Source: Conexivisphaerales archaeon (GTDB lineage Archaea > Thermoproteota > Nitrososphaeria > Conexivisphaerales > DTJL01). From it: 32,000 nt of DNA. The notes below the pieces were generated by a model. It did not search any database. It saw only the letters and a list, made by a program, of their open reading frames with translations, and was not told the DNA's origin. The DNA is taken from contig JAVYTR010000002.1 of assembly GCA_038728585.1 (NCBI GenBank), positions 350,369 to 382,368 on the forward strand, given 5' to 3'. Positions within the stretch are counted from its first letter, which is position 1. Each line of letters begins with the position of its first letter. Both the position numbers and the translations under genes were made by a program. Positions 25,977 through 32,000 of the stretch are shown here, in pieces.

Positions 25977-27012
25977 GGATCTTCTGGAACCTCAGTGAAT
26001 CAAGCAGTCCTTCTGCGTAACCAGCCTGAATCAAGGCAAGCTCAGGCTTACCGTCCAGTAAAAACCTCTGTGCATCTGATAGGTAGCATTCTACGTTTTC
26101 GAACACATCATCCAGGTTGTCTATACCTTTCTCCTTTGCAATTCTCCTCCCCTTCTCCAAAGCCATCATGGTTTTGTGAATGGCCTTGTTGACCAGTGTA
26201 GCATGAGGGGGTTCAAGTTTGGTATTCGACTGTTCGAGTATGTTCTTATCAACTTCAGCTAGAGTTGCTAGGGCATCGGCTTCTGTATAATGAAGCTCGG
26301 AAGGAATTATCACGCTGTGAGGAGGCTCTCCAAAATTCTTCGTCATCATATCCTTCAGCCTACCAGCACATATCATCTGGGAAGACCAGCCCACCCTTGA
26401 GGCAACTATGACAAGCCTGTCATCCTTGAAGACACCCAGTTTGTAGTTCTCCTCCATCCTTCTGAGCTTTGCAAGCAGTTCTGATGGAGCCAAGTATTCG
26501 CCAGAATCGCTGTCATATTCCAGAAGGAAGAGGGTATGTCTGTTTCTTGTCAAGTTATCCTTTACCTCTGGGTAAAGGGAATCTTCAACCACCTTATCGT
26601 TTCTCACAGCGGTTATAATTTTTCCCAGCTTGTAGATGTGAAGACCTGTCTCTCCGAATATCGCGTTTATTATGCTTGAAGAGTAAAAGATCCTGACAGG
26701 TATCCCCATCTCCTTTGCTCTCTGTTTCAGAATGATATGCGTTGTTGCAAGGAAGGGGTCTCCCACTGTTATTACGGCAACAGCAGCTTGCTTTGCTTCA
26801 TCAAGAATCTTTCTACCATCTTCAAGAAGGGTCCTTGATGCTCTCTGGATATTCTTTCCGAGCTCTGAACTCAAATCATGAAGCAGATCTGGAGGCCACG
26901 GGCTTGTGTACATGTCAGCATAGATGATGTCGCATTCCTTTAGATATTTTAAGCCTCCCATAGGGACACTGGCCATTCCCTGAACGCCAAGCCCTACGAG
27001 ACCTAGAGTCAA
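25960..27012 (-). CDS. dphB: diphthine synthase with ~85-aa DUF357-like C-terminal extension
   Basis: Residues 1-~260 align by eye to archaeal DphB (VGLG..., YADMYTS, GDPFLATTH, TGLHIYKLGK, HTLFLLE, FGEPPHSVIIPSELHYTEA). The tail ...ECYLSDAQRFLLDGKPELALIQAGYAEGLLDSL resembles DUF357. TTG start. Confidence 0.85.
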   Translation of the reverse strand: MTLGLVGLGVQGMASVPMGGLKYLKECDIIYADMYTSPWPPDLLHDLSSELGKNIQRASRTLLEDGRKILDEAKQAAVAVITVGDPFLATTHIILKQRAKEMGIPVRIFYSSSIINAIFGETGLHIYKLGKIITAVRNDKVVEDSLYPEVKDNLTRNRHTLFLLEYDSDSGEYLAPSELLAKLRRMEENYKLGVFKDDRLVIVASRVGWSSQMICAGRLKDMMTKNFGEPPHSVIIPSELHYTEADALATLAEVDKNILEQSNTKLEPPHATLVNKAIHKTMMALEKGRRIAKEKGIDNLDDVFENVECYLSDAQRFLLDGKPELALIQAGYAEGLLDSLRFQKILNFEW

Positions 27013-27186: not shown

Positions 27187-27260
27187 GGGCCTGTAGCTCA
27201 GCCAGGTAGAGCAGTCGGCTCTTAACCGACGGGTCATGGGTTCGAATCCCACCAGGCCCG
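27187..27260 (+). tRNA. tRNA-Lys (anticodon CUU), no intron, CCA not encoded
   Basis: Hand-folded cloverleaf: acceptor GGGCCTG/CAGGCCC plus discriminator G; D arm GCTC-AGCCAGGTA-GAGC; anticodon arm GTCGG-CTCTTAA-CCGAC; T arm with GGG-TTCGAAT-CCC. One A-C mismatch closes the T stem. A T-rich tract follows the 3' end. Confidence 0.88.
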
Positions 27261-27315
27261 CTTATTTTATTAACCGAATCCTTTGTTACAATGGTACTGT
27301 AACCCTATTATATCA

Positions 27316-27624
27316 ATGTCTAACAGCAAGTATTCTCATCTGCTTGATGATGAAGATGTCAGGAGATGGTTTGACAACCTTGAGGCGAGTTCTGCGGTAA
27401 CAGCTGATTAGAAACCTTGGACCCTTTAGTGTGGAAAAAACCAGATGTTCATCTGTTGGGGTTCGCCGGTAAATTTAATTGCTCGGTTGAGGAGATGGTA
27501 AATGGGAGTTCTAAAGCAACAGGTGACCCCTCTAGCTTTAGTTGACTATATCTTGTGGCTGTCAGATCAAGAAGAAGAAAGACGGCCACCGCCAGGATTT
27601 TCTTTGAGAAAACATGACTCTTAA
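27316..27624 (+). pseudogene. degraded N-terminal fragment of a tyrosine-recombinase-type integrase
   Basis: ATG at 27316 gives MSNSKYSHLLDDEDVRRWFDNLEASSAVTAD*, which resembles the N-terminus of archaeal site-specific integrases (…V.RWY.NL..GS..TAD…). Further pieces continue in shifted frames (LGFAGKFNCSVEEMV..., LVDYILWLSDQEE...), interrupted by stops. No catalytic domain was found downstream. The family assignment is from memory only. Confidence 0.35.
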
Positions 27625-28308
27625 AGATCAGACTATACTCGGTCTTGATGATATCTAAGAATTATAGTTGACAATTCAACGAACGCGTCTATTCTATTCT
27701 GTGTTCTTGACCTTAAGAGCAAGGAAAACATCAACTTTAGTCTGACCTCCATTCAATCCTATTTAATTTGTTGCCGTGGTAAGTGCAATTGCAGCGAAGA
27801 ATATGCAGAGAAGAAAACAGCCTAAAGACAGTTGAAAGACTATGTCTTTATAAAAACTTGGTCACCATGATAACCAGAAACCTACCAAGTCTCTAGACAA
27901 TTTACTTTAGCTCTAAGCATTATGATTATTAGCGGGAGAAAAGGCAAAAGAGCCGAACAGTGTTGAGAATAGAATAAGACAAGATGATTTTACATAGTAT
28001 CTCGAGCACTGTCAAGAGAGGTCATTCGTCTGCCCGCTTGGGAACATCCCTGAAGCTGCCGTATGGTCTATTCGTAAAATGCCGTCAGAGAGTGGGACCA
28101 TTAAATCGCAGCTGAGGCCGCGCGCTAAATGTATACTCGTGCAGTGACAACGTTGCTCGAACAAGTACTTTTCTATACGTTTACAAAAAGAATGTAAACA
28201 ATATCATTAAATTGTTGACGAAACGAAGTTTTACTTGGATATACTTTAAGCGATGAGATATTTCCACATGTTATGCTACCTGTACTGCGAAAATTTGTCA
28301 AACGCAAG

Positions 28309-28316
28309 TATAAATA
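28309..28316 (+). promoter_or_regulatory. TATA-box-like element upstream of the mcrB-like gene
   Basis: TATAAATA ends 21 nt before the ATG at 28337, which suggests a leaderless or near-leaderless transcript. A second TTAAATAG at 28324-28331 could serve the in-frame ATG at 28352. Confidence 0.3.
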
Positions 28317-28336
28317 GCCTAAATTAAATAGATATA

Positions 28337-30121
28337 ATGGTAGAATATGCAATGAGATACATCGCTATTCAGGGTTCTCCGGTTAATTGGATCTGGAGCC
28401 TTAGAACCCTTGGAAAGAATGAAGTAGGTCCAGGATTTCACAAAGTAAATCCCAATAGTGAGCGATCATTAACCAAAAATCAAGACAAACTATTGTGGGC
28501 TTTTCGACAAAAACAAGATTTTAATAGACTTTCCGAGATATTACAATTCGAAGAGAAGGTTCAGGTGCTCGTCATTTCAACTGTTGGAAACAGCTATCAA
28601 TTGAATGCGGGGGGTGTGATAGCGTTTGGTGAGATCGTAAAAGAAGATGTTATTGGAGAACTCAAATGGGATTATTGGCCAGAGGGTTCTGGCTGGGATT
28701 ATAAGTTTTATATAAGAATAACAAAATTAGCACCGAAGCTGCAAGAGAACTTAACAAAACTTAATAATATCCAGTCTCCAGAAATTGGTAATTTAGTTTC
28801 TGTTATGAGAGAATCAAGGGAAGATGTCTTGCCAGTCGTCCCAAAAAGCGTGACCAGAGGGTCGCTATCGGAACTGGACCATAAGACGTTTGATATATTC
28901 GAATTTCTGGCCTCTAAATACTGGGTAAAACAAAGAGAAGTCCAAATAGGTGTCACAAGCCTGTCGGAAGACCTTCAAAAGATAGCTACCATGCATCTTC
29001 TCGCGGGTAAAAATATCATAGTTTATGGACCGCCTGGAGTGGGAAAGACAATATTCGCAAAGAGTCTTTGTGAAAATCTAGGAATAGGTTTCCGTATAGA
29101 AACAGGGAACCCAGAGTGGACCGCTTTTGATGTAATTGGCGGCTACGACATTAATAATAAGTTTCGTATAGGATTTCTTACAGATGCTGTAGTTTCATGC
29201 CATATTTCACTCAAAGAGAGCGGAAGACCATATTGGTTAATTATAGACGAAATTAATAGAGCAAACCTAGATCTTTCCTTTGGTAATGCATTCACAACAT
29301 TAGATCTAGCCCACCGGCCTAATACTCCATTGGTAGAATTTTATGAAAGCCTTGACGAAAACAAGGGTAAAAATGAGAAACTAATGTCCATACTTAAAGA
29401 GTACGGATCGAAGAAGATGGCCCTATTCGTACCGTTATCCTTTAGAATTATAGGAACAATGAACAGTTATGACAGAACACTTCTATTTAGGCTAGGCTTC
29501 GCAATGATCAGAAGATTTGCTTTCATACCATTATCCACGAAAAAGTACACCCTTTCAGTAAACGATGACACTTTTATTGAACAAGCTAAAATTTTGACTA
29601 ACGAGTCTAACGAAAACTGGAAAGAGACATTTCAAAGTGCATCTCGAGAATTGATGCTGAAGGGCGACATACAAAATGATTCCGTCACCTTTAGAACCGA
29701 TTCAATGCCTCAGGAACCTTACCTGATTGACGAGAGTTTAGGCGAATTATCTTCAGATTTGAATGCTTTTAGGTTGATCCACGCGATATGCCAAAGGATA
29801 AACGAGATTTTGGTCGGTAGTCTTGAGGTGGGTATGGCTTTGGAAATTGACGCAATGAAATTTATGCTAGCCGCTACCTCATATTTTGGGGAATCATGGA
29901 AAACATTCGGTAAAGGTCTGGTTGACCAAGCGGTTAACTCATACATATTGCCACAATTTGACGCGTTATCTGAACAACTCCGAGCTGAAGCATTGGGTAT
30001 GTCAAGCAGCCAAAGTGTACAAAATAAAGTAAAAGAAGTCAATGTATTATTCAAAAATCTGCGATTGAATGATAGCTTGGCCAGTATCGAACGGATAATG
30101 AACGGGGAAAGAATCTTTTGA
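28337..30121 (+). CDS. mcrB: McrB-family AAA+ GTPase with unrecognised N-terminal (putative DNA/modified-base reader) domain and long C-terminal extension
   Basis: 594 aa. Walker A is GPPGVGKT (aa 231-238) and Walker B is WLIIDEINRAN (aa 300-310). IIGTMNSYDR corresponds to the McrB MNTADRS/NxxD motif, and MIRRFAFIPL to McrB ALRRRFSFI. Aa 1-~225 and aa ~401-594 lie outside the AAA+ core. Confidence 0.8.
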   Translation: MVEYAMRYIAIQGSPVNWIWSLRTLGKNEVGPGFHKVNPNSERSLTKNQDKLLWAFRQKQDFNRLSEILQFEEKVQVLVISTVGNSYQLNAGGVIAFGEIVKEDVIGELKWDYWPEGSGWDYKFYIRITKLAPKLQENLTKLNNIQSPEIGNLVSVMRESREDVLPVVPKSVTRGSLSELDHKTFDIFEFLASKYWVKQREVQIGVTSLSEDLQKIATMHLLAGKNIIVYGPPGVGKTIFAKSLCENLGIGFRIETGNPEWTAFDVIGGYDINNKFRIGFLTDAVVSCHISLKESGRPYWLIIDEINRANLDLSFGNAFTTLDLAHRPNTPLVEFYESLDENKGKNEKLMSILKEYGSKKMALFVPLSFRIIGTMNSYDRTLLFRLGFAMIRRFAFIPLSTKKYTLSVNDDTFIEQAKILTNESNENWKETFQSASRELMLKGDIQNDSVTFRTDSMPQEPYLIDESLGELSSDLNAFRLIHAICQRINEILVGSLEVGMALEIDAMKFMLAATSYFGESWKTFGKGLVDQAVNSYILPQFDALSEQLRAEALGMSSSQSVQNKVKEVNVLFKNLRLNDSLASIERIMNGERIF

Positions 30122-31611
30122 GTCTGGTACTAGAGTTTAGAGAAGACAAAGACTATGAATGCGATGAAATTCAAGAAGTAATAAAACAGAAGTTACCAAG
30201 CCAACAGTCATCAACTCTTGTTGATGAAATAATTGAGTTTGTAGATAAGAATCTAAACCGCAGTATGCGAATCTTGATAGAGCTCCAATATTCTGATTTT
30301 AGGATAGAGTCTCCATTACCAGTTTTTCGCCATAGAAAAAGACAGATCAATTTCGGACAATGGGTTGGTGTGTATAGATTCTACTCGGAAGAGCTAGCTT
30401 CTGAAGTTACGATAAAAGTCGTTCCTAAAATTCCTCTTCAATCGTTCACTCTTATGTTGAATGAAGTTTATGGTCTCGTGCAAATGTACGGCGTTCCGGC
30501 TTTGGACGTGGTATCGCTTAATCTGCACGGTTATAGTAATTTCCGTGATTGTCTGACATACAGTTTCCTACTAAATAGGTTAACAGAGTTAGCTTTTGCA
30601 CATGGTATAGTTAGGCAGGCTACATTCGTACGATATTCTTCTGGAATACAGATGGGCTTGATCGACAGACATAGAACAGCCTATAATTTACAAAGGGGAA
30701 TACCACTGATAGAATCCAAGAAATTTACAGCGAAGTACCCTGATCTCTTTCTTATGTTATTAGTTAGGTTTCATTTAATGCTCAGTCATGATATCAATGA
30801 GCAAGTCGCTAGATTTAGAAACTTGAATCCAAACAAGGGCGATCCGTTGGACCACATGCTGAGTACCATTAAAGTATCGCAAGCTCAACATGCTAAGTAT
30901 CTATCAGATGGTATCTTGCAGAATTACATAGCTGCAGCACTGTCTTTTGACTTTGAAGATTTTGGGCTATTACGAAATATCCGAAGCGAAGTAAAGTATA
31001 ACGAATGGTTTAAGGCAATTGTTGACCTATTCGAATCTTACTTGTCAAAAAGACCCGTCAGAGTTAAGTTAAAAGAGTCAGATCTAAGCGAAGTTGCAGT
31101 TCAACCATTACCTTCCAGTAAGGTCTACGAGTTGTGGATACTTACACTGTTTAATCGAATATATGGAAAATATAACTCCAGAAAGCCAGTTATAATGCGT
31201 ACCAATAATGGATTCGATTTCGTTTATGGAGATCTCGTGATTTGTTATAACTCTGAGAAACTAGAATGGAGTAAAATCTTCTCAAAAATAATCAGAAATT
31301 CCCCTAGACCAGATATGATACTAGCTGGGAAACATAAAAGAGCTGTGTTAGACGCAAAATACAGAGAAGTGAACCATTTAGGCGTTGAAGATATAGAAAG
31401 GATAATCAGCTATCTAGTGGATTATTCGGAACCTCAGGACCATGATGAAATAAAAGGCTTTCTTGTAACTCTTGGTGATTTGAATGTGAACGAAGCTAGC
31501 CGTAGAGATTTGGTGCCAAACCTGAGAATCTATCATCTTGTAGCTGATCCCAACCGTCCGAAAGAAGCAGAAGAAAATTTAGAAAGAGTATACCACAAAG
31601 TATTTTCGTAA
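30118..31611 (+). CDS. mcrC: McrC-like partner protein with C-terminal PD-(D/E)xK nuclease domain
   Basis: 497 aa. The TTG start overlaps the upstream stop (TTGA). The N-terminal QWVGVYRF...VTIKVVPKI matches the McrC/DUF2357 motif (VGvi...ieIlPKi). The C-terminus has E338 (YELW), P-D399 (RPDMIL) and D412-A-K414 (VLDAKYRE), a canonical PD...(D/E)xK arrangement. Confidence 0.72.
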   Translation: MSLVLEFREDKDYECDEIQEVIKQKLPSQQSSTLVDEIIEFVDKNLNRSMRILIELQYSDFRIESPLPVFRHRKRQINFGQWVGVYRFYSEELASEVTIKVVPKIPLQSFTLMLNEVYGLVQMYGVPALDVVSLNLHGYSNFRDCLTYSFLLNRLTELAFAHGIVRQATFVRYSSGIQMGLIDRHRTAYNLQRGIPLIESKKFTAKYPDLFLMLLVRFHLMLSHDINEQVARFRNLNPNKGDPLDHMLSTIKVSQAQHAKYLSDGILQNYIAAALSFDFEDFGLLRNIRSEVKYNEWFKAIVDLFESYLSKRPVRVKLKESDLSEVAVQPLPSSKVYELWILTLFNRIYGKYNSRKPVIMRTNNGFDFVYGDLVICYNSEKLEWSKIFSKIIRNSPRPDMILAGKHKRAVLDAKYREVNHLGVEDIERIISYLVDYSEPQDHDEIKGFLVTLGDLNVNEASRRDLVPNLRIYHLVADPNRPKEAEENLERVYHKVFS

Positions 31612-31628
31612 TGTTATAGCATGTTAAA

Positions 31629-32000
31629 GTGTGGTGTGGACTGTTGACTGAGGAAGATTCAAAGTTTACAATCGGTAACTTAAAGACCTTAGTGAAGGAA
31701 TTTATATCCCAAAGGAAGTGGGAAAGATATCACAATCCGAAGGATTTGGCGGAATCAATATCCGTTGAGAGTGCTGAACTACTCGAAATTTTCCAGTGGA
31801 AATCACAGGAACAGAGTTGGTCTTTGGCTATGTCTGAGAAAGGCAGGACTAGGGTAAAAGAAGAGTTGGCCGACGTGCTGATCTACTGTATAAGCTTGGC
31901 AAATGTGCTTGGCTTGGACATCAACACTATTGTCAGAGAAAAAATCAAAAAGAATTCTGATAAATATCCTACAAATGGCTCAGAGAATCTCTTCGGGTAG
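31629..32000 (+). CDS. mazG: MazG-like nucleoside-triphosphate pyrophosphohydrolase, DCTPP1/RS21-C6 (dCTP pyrophosphatase) type
   Basis: 123 aa. WERYHNPKDLAESISVESAELLEIFQWKS and VKEELADVLIYCISLANVLGLDINTIVREKIKKNSDKYP closely parallel the DCTPP1 pattern (W.QFH.PRNL...GE.GEL.E.FQWK...; L.EELSDVLIYL...DL...I..K...N...YP) with the ExxE...ExxD metal motifs. The start is GTG 31629 or TTG 31644. The TAG stop is the last three bases of the window. Confidence 0.8.
   Translation: MWCGLLTEEDSKFTIGNLKTLVKEFISQRKWERYHNPKDLAESISVESAELLEIFQWKSQEQSWSLAMSEKGRTRVKEELADVLIYCISLANVLGLDINTIVREKIKKNSDKYPTNGSENLFG

Follow-up and report, generated by a model that had tools for sequence, protein, structure and literature searches.

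The window analysed here is a stretch of 32,000 nucleotides from a metagenome-assembled genome of a Conexivisphaerales archaeon, and it ends in three genes on the same strand, an McrB-like gene, an McrC-like gene and a MazG-like gene, which we call genes 1, 2 and 3 (Table 1). The last codon of the window is the stop codon of gene 3. NCBI lists proteins identical to the products of genes 1 and 2 on a contig of 382 kb, the gene 2 product under locus tag QXV32_04270. Genes 1 and 2 overlap by 4 bp (TTGA), and the identical 4-bp overlap is found in homologous loci. Gene 3 follows gene 2 after 17 nt if it starts at a GTG or after 32 nt if it starts at a TTG; the alignment of its homologues favours the TTG at position 31644 and thus the longer gap. 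The three genes lie on an island of low GC content, in which GC drops from ~0.46 to 0.38-0.40 at about position 27000 and which is still running at the window end. A tRNA-Lys(CTT) gene marks the border of this island with the housekeeping genes that lie upstream of it up to ~27000 (FEN1, CDC48, MarC, TruD and a diphthine-synthase-like methylase). Besides the tRNA, the island yielded nothing in scans for Rfam families and repeats. A reading of the DNA letters made before our analysis (the original prediction) had described the three tightly packed open reading frames (ORFs), the AT-rich island beside a tRNA and a set of motifs in genes 1 and 2, and all of these are present in the DNA and in the translations, with the key residues of the motifs invariant across homologues. 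It had also joined the three genes into one dedicated defence system, a claim that fared differently when related loci were compared.

Gene 1 carries the motifs GPPGVGKT (residues 231-238), IDEINRAN, MNSYDR and IRRFAF. Pfam recognised it as AAA_5 at 2.5e-12, while the best NCBIfam model was McrB at 2e-11, with the next model at 1e-4. The best match among PDB sequences was also McrB (5e-11), as were all of the top five. The alignment with McrB takes in Walker A, Walker B (IIDEINRAN), the MNxxDR signature and the RRF motif, with MN376-S-Y-D379-R placed on MNTADR and R392-R393-F on RRRF of Escherichia coli McrB. The NxxD element of this signature (NTAD in E. coli) is what confers GTP specificity on McrB, and N376 and D379 are invariant in 40 gene 1 homologues, together with G231, P233, G234, K237, T238, D304, E305, R392 and R393. 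Congruently, the AlphaFold2 (AF2) model of the protein, with a predicted local distance difference test score (pLDDT) of 85, had McrB chains as all of its top 19 Foldseek matches. The MoxR-class ATPases NorQ and CbbQ ranked below McrB in both the PDB sequence search and Foldseek, and PADLOC matched gene 1 only with broad ATPase models or models of type II restriction enzymes, at E values of 3e-7 or weaker. With the best NCBIfam, PDB and Foldseek matches all falling on McrB and the NxxD signature conserved, gene 1 is McrB-like and not MoxR-like, as had been proposed, and its sequence predicts a GTPase.

The N-terminal ~150 residues of gene 1 form a conserved, beta-rich domain (pLDDT ~90 in the AF2 model) in which W54, F56, W114 and W120 are invariant. 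Pfam gave no match to this domain in the window protein, but four of 13 members of the gene 1 family match Pfam EVE, with a best E value of 1.6e-4. In the profile search against the PDB, the domain came closest to the EVE protein PH1033, though only weakly, with an E value of 0.2. An insert of 30-40 aa separates the first strand from the LWAF motif. The Foldseek search with the full McrB model was dominated by the AAA+ core and therefore says nothing about the N-terminal domain. We regard the domain as a probable divergent reader of modified bases of the EVE/PUA type, a prediction made from sequence, and which modified base it would read is a matter of inference. The original prediction knew of no described system with this domain; the EVE matches within the family and PH1033 make it probably a known, EVE/PUA-like one. 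Among the EVE fusions of defence systems, EVE-McrB is the most frequent and occurs in ~300 genera, archaea included (PMC7641849), so the architecture of gene 1 is not new in kind.

Gene 2 was more difficult to place with curated models. Pfam (including PF10117, McrBC), PADLOC and NCBIfam gave no match to it, and a 14-sequence gene 2 profile found nothing among PDB sequences. Its sequence contains an N-terminal WVGVYRF...VPKI motif and the residues of a PD-(D/E)xK core, of which E338, P398, D399 and K414 do not vary among 50 diverse homologues. The AF2 model (pLDDT 77) had McrC chains as its four best PDB Foldseek matches, at E values from 1e-9 to 7e-6 and led by 6ut7_G (1e-9) and 6hz4_M (2e-8); the structural alignments extend over 412-532 columns with modest TM scores (template modelling, 0.27-0.43) and 11-12% identity. 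An exhaustive profile search yielded a small family of 155 representatives. A profile built from 50 members matched the Thermococcus gammatolerans McrC at 2e-9 and the E. coli McrC at 3e-5, in both cases across the nuclease core, and 16 of these 50 more distant members match Pfam McrBC. In every homologous locus that includes upstream sequence the McrB and McrC genes are adjacent. The claim that gene 2 is McrC-like with a PD-(D/E)xK core was thus supported by the fold matches, the 50-member profile and the invariant residues, and the combination of these matches with the silence of the curated models identifies a divergent McrC subfamily. Nuclease activity is predicted from the conserved core.

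Gene 3 matches the Pfam MazG-like family PF12643 at 4e-19 and, in the PDB, the Archaeoglobus pyrophosphatase 4qgp at 1e-21 and mammalian DCTPP1/RS21-C6 at 1e-17. Its ExxE...ExxD residues E42, E45, E74 and D77 (118-aa numbering) correspond to mouse E63, E66, E95 and D98, and they are invariant among its relatives, as are W26, W52 and Y81. These aromatic residues align with mouse W47, W73 and Y102, and a valine occupies the position of mouse H38; in the mouse enzyme these four residues belong to the aromatic nucleobase pocket, where W47, W73 and Y102 take part in binding 5-methyl-deoxycytidine triphosphate (5-methyl-dCTP). The assignment to the DCTPP1/RS21-C6 branch therefore held, with the catalytic site intact, while the "close match" that had been announced amounts to an identity of ~37% only to mammalian DCTPP1 (45% to 4qgp). 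Gene 3 looks like an active all-alpha NTP pyrophosphohydrolase of the dCTP-pyrophosphatase type, to judge from these residues, and its substrate would presumably be of that kind.

The relation of gene 3 to genes 1 and 2 was studied in 34 loci containing relatives of gene 2, onto each of which all three window genes were mapped. A MazG-like gene lies downstream in only two of the nine McrBC lineages with readable downstream DNA, namely the window and one clade (the L003 clade); if the three genes formed one system, MazG would be a conserved neighbour of this McrBC across genomes, which these counts do not bear out. The McrC proteins of the MazG-bearing clade are 82-94% identical among themselves and 40% identical to that of the window. 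Its sister groups, at ~70% identity (L019; L001/L008/L015), are without MazG, and so are the more distant McrBC lineages (L010/L028, L029, L031/L032 and a second pair in L008). In the MazG-bearing clade, a gene of ~108 aa and then an HExxH gene of ~220 aa always follow MazG. L026 shows the complementary arrangement, in which McrBC is followed by the 108-aa and 220-aa genes without MazG.

Several further features were observed in these McrBC loci. L008 contains tandem McrB-McrC pairs, the first 25-30% and the second 40-42% identical to the window proteins. In the MazG-less lineage formed by L001, L008 and L015, a convergent gene for an Mrr-type restriction endonuclease lies just downstream, and in L001 a 1315-aa DEAD/helicase protein is encoded after it, which is a defence-island setting.

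The three genes for MazG, the 108-aa protein and the 220-aa protein (hereafter the trio) form a block that extends well beyond McrBC. Each readable MazG of the trio group, in seven lineages, is followed by the 108-aa and 220-aa genes. Conversely, the 108/220 pair is accompanied by MazG in six of nine contexts, and five of those six are without McrBC. The module in front of the block varies (Table 1): McrBC alternates with a two-gene module of a radical-SAM protein and a Cys-rich protein of 544-596 aa, or with a radical-SAM-like protein and an HNH protein, the gene of which has a weak match to a model for methyl-directed restriction of type IV. The original prediction had conceded that it would fail if the MazG-like gene turned out to open an unrelated downstream operon, and in the relatives this is largely so: there MazG heads the MazG/108/220 block and does so behind radical-SAM modules too.

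The most telling pair of loci is L050, with a front of the Cys-rich ~580-aa type, and L016, with an McrBC front. The two are 95.7% identical in nucleotide sequence over 1541 bp, a stretch that begins 49 nt into MazG and stops where the 220-aa gene does, and their front modules are unrelated, so that a recombination boundary lies just within MazG. In the MazG tree, the L050 MazG nests among the McrBC-fronted MazGs, and in both loci a 50-aa ORF, 98% identical between them, runs antisense in the interval from MazG to the 108-aa gene. A block so similar behind unrelated fronts indicates that McrBC is a swappable cargo cassette and that MazG belongs to the neighbouring block. The antisense ORF (~50 aa, minus strand, MGRE.AK.VCKSYEEAVELLNAYK...) was seen in five loci and is 88-98% identical despite different fronts. 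In several loci this ORF and a spacing of as much as 236 nt come between MazG and the 108-aa gene.

The proteins of the block other than MazG are poorly covered by existing collections. The 108-aa, 220-aa and ~580-aa proteins gave nothing meaningful against Pfam, PADLOC, PHROGs, NCBIfam and PDB sequences. In the ~220-aa family H76-E77-x-x-H80 is invariant, an HExxH motif suggesting a metallohydrolase, and the protein is fused to the 108-aa protein in P0284, P0285 and L040. The family comprises at least 70 clusters (55-100% identity), compared with 15 in the first-pass McrC match list. A profile search with MazG, 108-aa and 220-aa proteins concatenated found almost only the 220-aa family and missed proteins identical to parts of the query, and its silence on the genome of the window is therefore uninformative. 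As for the alternating module, its radical-SAM protein shows a weak similarity to proteins of the PA0069, Rv2578c, 'mobile pair B' and DNA-repair-photolyase types. The ~580-aa family was considered as a relative of McrC and rejected, as the profile-profile comparison was negative.

Tyrosine integrases and a rolling-circle Rep are encoded beside the trio. In L004, genes for an HK97-type major capsid protein, a cement protein and a portal-like protein lie directly upstream of McrB, so that this McrBC-MazG-108-220 locus is located within a tailed-virus-like provirus or at its border. The integrase, Rep and capsid-type genes, taken with the low-GC island beside a tRNA in the window, point to integrated elements or proviruses as the carriers. 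The McrC family and the 220-aa family were not found in IMG/VR, and the 220-aa family was not found in phage and plasmid collections. A NurA and HerA (DUF87) pair without Mre11/Rad50 occurs close to the trio in two arrangements and may be a further defence-type module on these elements. In L038, a gene of the nucleoside 2-deoxyribosyltransferase family lies just downstream of the trio and adds a second function in nucleotide metabolism to the element. In the window itself, a short ORF (MSNSKYSHLLDDEDVRRWFDNLEASSAVTAD, then a stop) with a frameshifted continuation is located just after the tRNA. It may be a remnant of the N-terminus of an archaeal tyrosine integrase, a likeness that no tool confirmed: the ORF gave no family match and no match to the integrases of the related loci.

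Table 1. Features of the window and of related loci. Plain positions refer to the window; positions preceded by a locus name refer to that locus.
Feature	Position	Strand	Description
Gene 1	28337-30121	+	McrB-type AAA+ GTPase (predicted), 594 aa
N-terminal domain of gene 1	28337-28786	+	aa 1-150; probable divergent EVE/PUA-like reader
Gene 2	30118-31611	+	McrC-type partner and predicted nuclease, 497 aa
PD-(D/E)xK nuclease core of gene 2	31105-31467	+	~aa 330-450; E338, P398-D399, D412-A413-K414
Gene 3	31644-32000 (TTG, 118 aa) or 31629-32000 (GTG, 123 aa)	+	MazG-like
tRNA-Lys(CTT)	27187-27261	+	ARAGORN; Rfam tRNA 64 bits
Stretch without intact gene, ~1.07 kb	27262-28336		Short broken ORFs
Short ORF and frameshifted continuation	27316-27621		Just after the tRNA
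Front of L041/42	L041:4089-7129		Radical-SAM 434 aa + Cys-rich 578 aa; MazG present
Front of L038/39	L038:4113-6860		Radical-SAM-like 322 aa + 590 aa; MazG present
Front of L049	L049:3238-6195		Radical-SAM 428 aa + 544 aa; MazG present
Front of L050			C-terminal part of ~580-aa-type protein (locus begins inside it); MazG present
Front of L035-37			Radical-SAM-like 436 aa + HNH; MazG present
Front of L043-48	L043:536-3630		Radical-SAM 435 aa + 596 aa; MazG absent
L040			No front; fused 108+220 gene alone, restriction-modification/defence island; MazG absent
~50-aa antisense ORF	L012:2568-2720, L013:4768-4920, L014:2972-3124, L016:2807-2971, L050:992-1144	minus	Between MazG and 108-aa gene
~220-aa HExxH gene	L003:5390-6052		Homologues in other loci
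Tandem McrB-McrC pairs	L008:4569-10790		
Mrr-type restriction endonuclease gene	L001:5187-5414, L008:11466-12632, L015:7160-8290		Convergent
Capsid, cement and portal-like genes	L004:395-5557	minus	Directly upstream of McrB
NurA + HerA (DUF87) pair	L003:6100-8672, L041:463-3039		Close to the trio
Nucleoside 2-deoxyribosyltransferase-family gene	L038:8803-9210	minus	Just downstream of the trio

Taken as a whole, the family and fold assignments, the conserved catalytic residues, the gene order and the recombination boundary make it probable, if not secure, that genes 1 and 2 are a self-contained, divergent archaeal McrBC cassette, mobile as a whole, and that MazG is its positional neighbour rather than a dedicated third subunit. 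McrBC would then be a type IV, modification-dependent restriction system on the low-GC island by the tRNA-Lys. In analogy to the McrBC complexes of known structure, hexamers of McrB would bind a modified base in DNA through the EVE-like N-terminal domain, McrC would insert into the hexamer and stimulate GTP hydrolysis, and its PD-(D/E)xK domain would cut the DNA. The MazG/108/220 block would sit on integrated elements or proviruses directly behind a variable slot, which holds McrBC in some loci and a radical-SAM and a Cys-rich ~580-aa protein or a radical-SAM and an HNH protein in others, and MazG would most likely hydrolyse dCTP-like nucleotides for whatever the conserved block serves.

A number of observations weigh against this interpretation. 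Three divergent McrBC lineages (the window, the L003 clade and L026) stand beside at least part of the trio, which exceeds chance. MazG lies close behind the upstream gene everywhere, with gaps of 17-47 nt after McrC and overlaps of 4-7 bp after the Cys-rich protein. In the window, no run of five or more T was found between genes 2 and 3, and this, together with the tight packing, makes co-transcription of McrC and MazG likely. Gene 3 is moreover an outlier, with 43-53% identity to the trio MazGs and 45% to the stand-alone Archaeoglobus enzyme; its orthology to the trio MazG is thus not established, and if its adjacency to McrBC arose as an independent event, this would favour a functional link. 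We infer that the MazG of the window behaves like those of its relatives, the window ending at the stop of gene 3. A looser cooperation between McrBC and MazG is possible, and it is plausible that the cassette reaches past the window end.

The same observations bear on what else the block could be. It might be a functional accessory to whichever front module is present, with MazG, for example, hydrolysing the modified dCTP released from degraded foreign DNA, so that it would be neither incorporated by the host nor turned into a target of self-restriction, while the virus would be starved of its modified precursor. The tight packing or overlap with every type of front, the tie of three divergent lineages of one McrBC subfamily to the block, the weak type IV restriction match of the HNH front gene and the fused 108+220 gene in the restriction-modification and defence island of L040 are all consistent with such a role, and MazG domains count among the predicted, though unvalidated, components of defence (PMC13092281; bioRxiv 10.64898/2026.01.15.699771). 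In addition, DCTPP1 prevents the misincorporation of modified dCTP (PMC13291643). However, MazG is optional in loci fronted by McrBC (L026) and by radical-SAM proteins (L043-48), the whole block is missing from most McrBC loci of the subfamily, neither the 108-aa nor the 220-aa protein has a match among known families, PADLOC included, and in several loci the antisense ORF and the long gaps part MazG from the 108-aa gene. On balance we consider an accessory role unlikely, yet worth keeping in view. We are similarly doubtful, at much the same level, about a broader version in which MazG/108/220 would be a module common to archaeal immune loci, so far undescribed, that plugs into interchangeable effector pairs, with the window as a divergent instance. 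Should it be true, the dCTPase-type enzyme would serve to clean up or deplete nucleotides with modified pyrimidines, the HExxH protein would be a regulator or co-effector, and the whole would be a multi-gene system of modular build, directed against modified nucleotides and with no characterised counterpart.

The dedicated, co-evolved system of the original prediction, in which viral DNA with modified cytosine would be cut by McrBC and the pool of modified dCTP broken down by the DCTPP1-like enzyme, agrees with the same-strand arrangement and short gap in the window, with the recurrence of the McrBC-then-MazG order in a related clade and with the DCTPP1-like catalytic and aromatic substrate-site residues of gene 3, and the window's MazG was perhaps acquired independently of the trio MazG. 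This two-pronged, three-gene design has nevertheless become improbable: near-identical MazGs stand behind unrelated modules, as in L050 and L016, MazG heads a separate block in the relatives, seven of the nine McrBC lineages lack it, and L026 keeps the 108-aa and 220-aa genes without it. Nothing, furthermore, ties the reader domain to cytosine modification rather than to, for example, N6-methyladenine (m6A), which the T. gammatolerans McrB reads (PMC7641849). At the opposite extreme, gene 3 could be a host housekeeping gene of nucleotide-pool maintenance that neighbours an inserted McrBC cassette by chance. Stand-alone archaeal DCTPP1-like MazGs do exist, and 4qgp is as similar to gene 3 as the trio MazGs are; but the GC content of gene 3 is that of the island (0.38, against 0.46 for the genome), the tRNA border leaves the gene on the side of the island, and a related McrBC clade has the same neighbour, all of which leaves chance adjacency with very little credibility. 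Positional neighbourhood of a self-contained McrBC cassette and a separate block remains the explanation we prefer.

Genes 1 and 2 are comparable to the McrBC systems of E. coli K-12 and T. gammatolerans (6hz4, 6ut6, 6ut5, 6ut7) in having two overlapping genes, the GPPGVGKT, DEINRAN, NxxD and RRF motifs and an McrC fold with PD-(D/E)xK residues, and these systems are their best sequence and fold matches. They differ in size from the E. coli proteins (594 aa vs 459 for McrB and 497 aa vs 348 for McrC), and the window McrC is only 11-12% identical to the known ones in structural alignments and goes unseen by Pfam, NCBIfam and PADLOC. The reader domain is unlike the DUF3578 type of E. coli and is not demonstrably of the YTH type of T. 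gammatolerans. With the EVE-McrB fusions (Bell et al. 2020, PMC7641849) gene 1 probably shares a PUA-superfamily reader placed N-terminal to McrB; the link of its domain to EVE is weak (1.6e-4 in relatives and E 0.2 in the PDB) and the 30-40-aa insert sets it apart. Gene 3 has the ExxE...ExxD metal site, the W/W/Y residues and the ~120-aa length of DCTPP1/RS21-C6 and 4qgp, from which it departs in its identity of 37% and 45%, respectively, and in the valine at the mouse H38 position.

The exchange of fronts recalls the P2/P4 hotspots, prophage and satellite slots in which unrelated defence cassettes replace one another. Here too, backbones of 95.7% identity are combined with McrBC in one case and, in the other, with a module that ends in a protein of the Cys-rich ~580-aa type; the elements, however, are archaeal, and the backbone genes (MazG, 108-aa and 220-aa) are uncharacterised and may be functional partners. 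Regarding MazG, the dCTPase gp56 of phage T4 is a viral enzyme that serves DNA modification rather than defence. Nucleotide-depleting defences include a dCTP deaminase and a dGTPase (bioRxiv 10.1101/2021.04.26.441389). Like gene 3, these enzymes and gp56 would remove deoxynucleoside triphosphates in virus-host conflict; gp56 excepted, they belong to other folds and families. A defence effector of the MazG type has yet to be validated, the role being a predicted one for MazG domains (PMC13092281). In the papers searched we found no link between McrBC and MazG, and neither an McrBC census paper nor the EVE-domain survey (PMC7641849) includes MazG. In this respect the original prediction, which knew of no described McrBC and DCTPP1 system, was supported.

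What is new at this locus is a very divergent, EVE-like McrBC, and what is more unusual is the MazG/108/220 block with interchangeable fronts on archaeal integrated elements. A tidy same-strand cassette in one genome had suggested a new mechanism; the related loci show swappable cargo and a conserved block. As its McrC is unmatched in Pfam, NCBIfam and PADLOC, defence annotation based on hidden Markov models would probably miss this McrBC, and because the libraries of protein families that were tested do not recognise the subfamily, counts of type IV restriction systems in Thermoproteota-related archaea are probably too low. The MazG/108/220 block and the radical-SAM/Cys-rich pair, both uncharacterised and recurrent on archaeal integrated elements, would be suitable targets for work on virus-host conflict in archaea.

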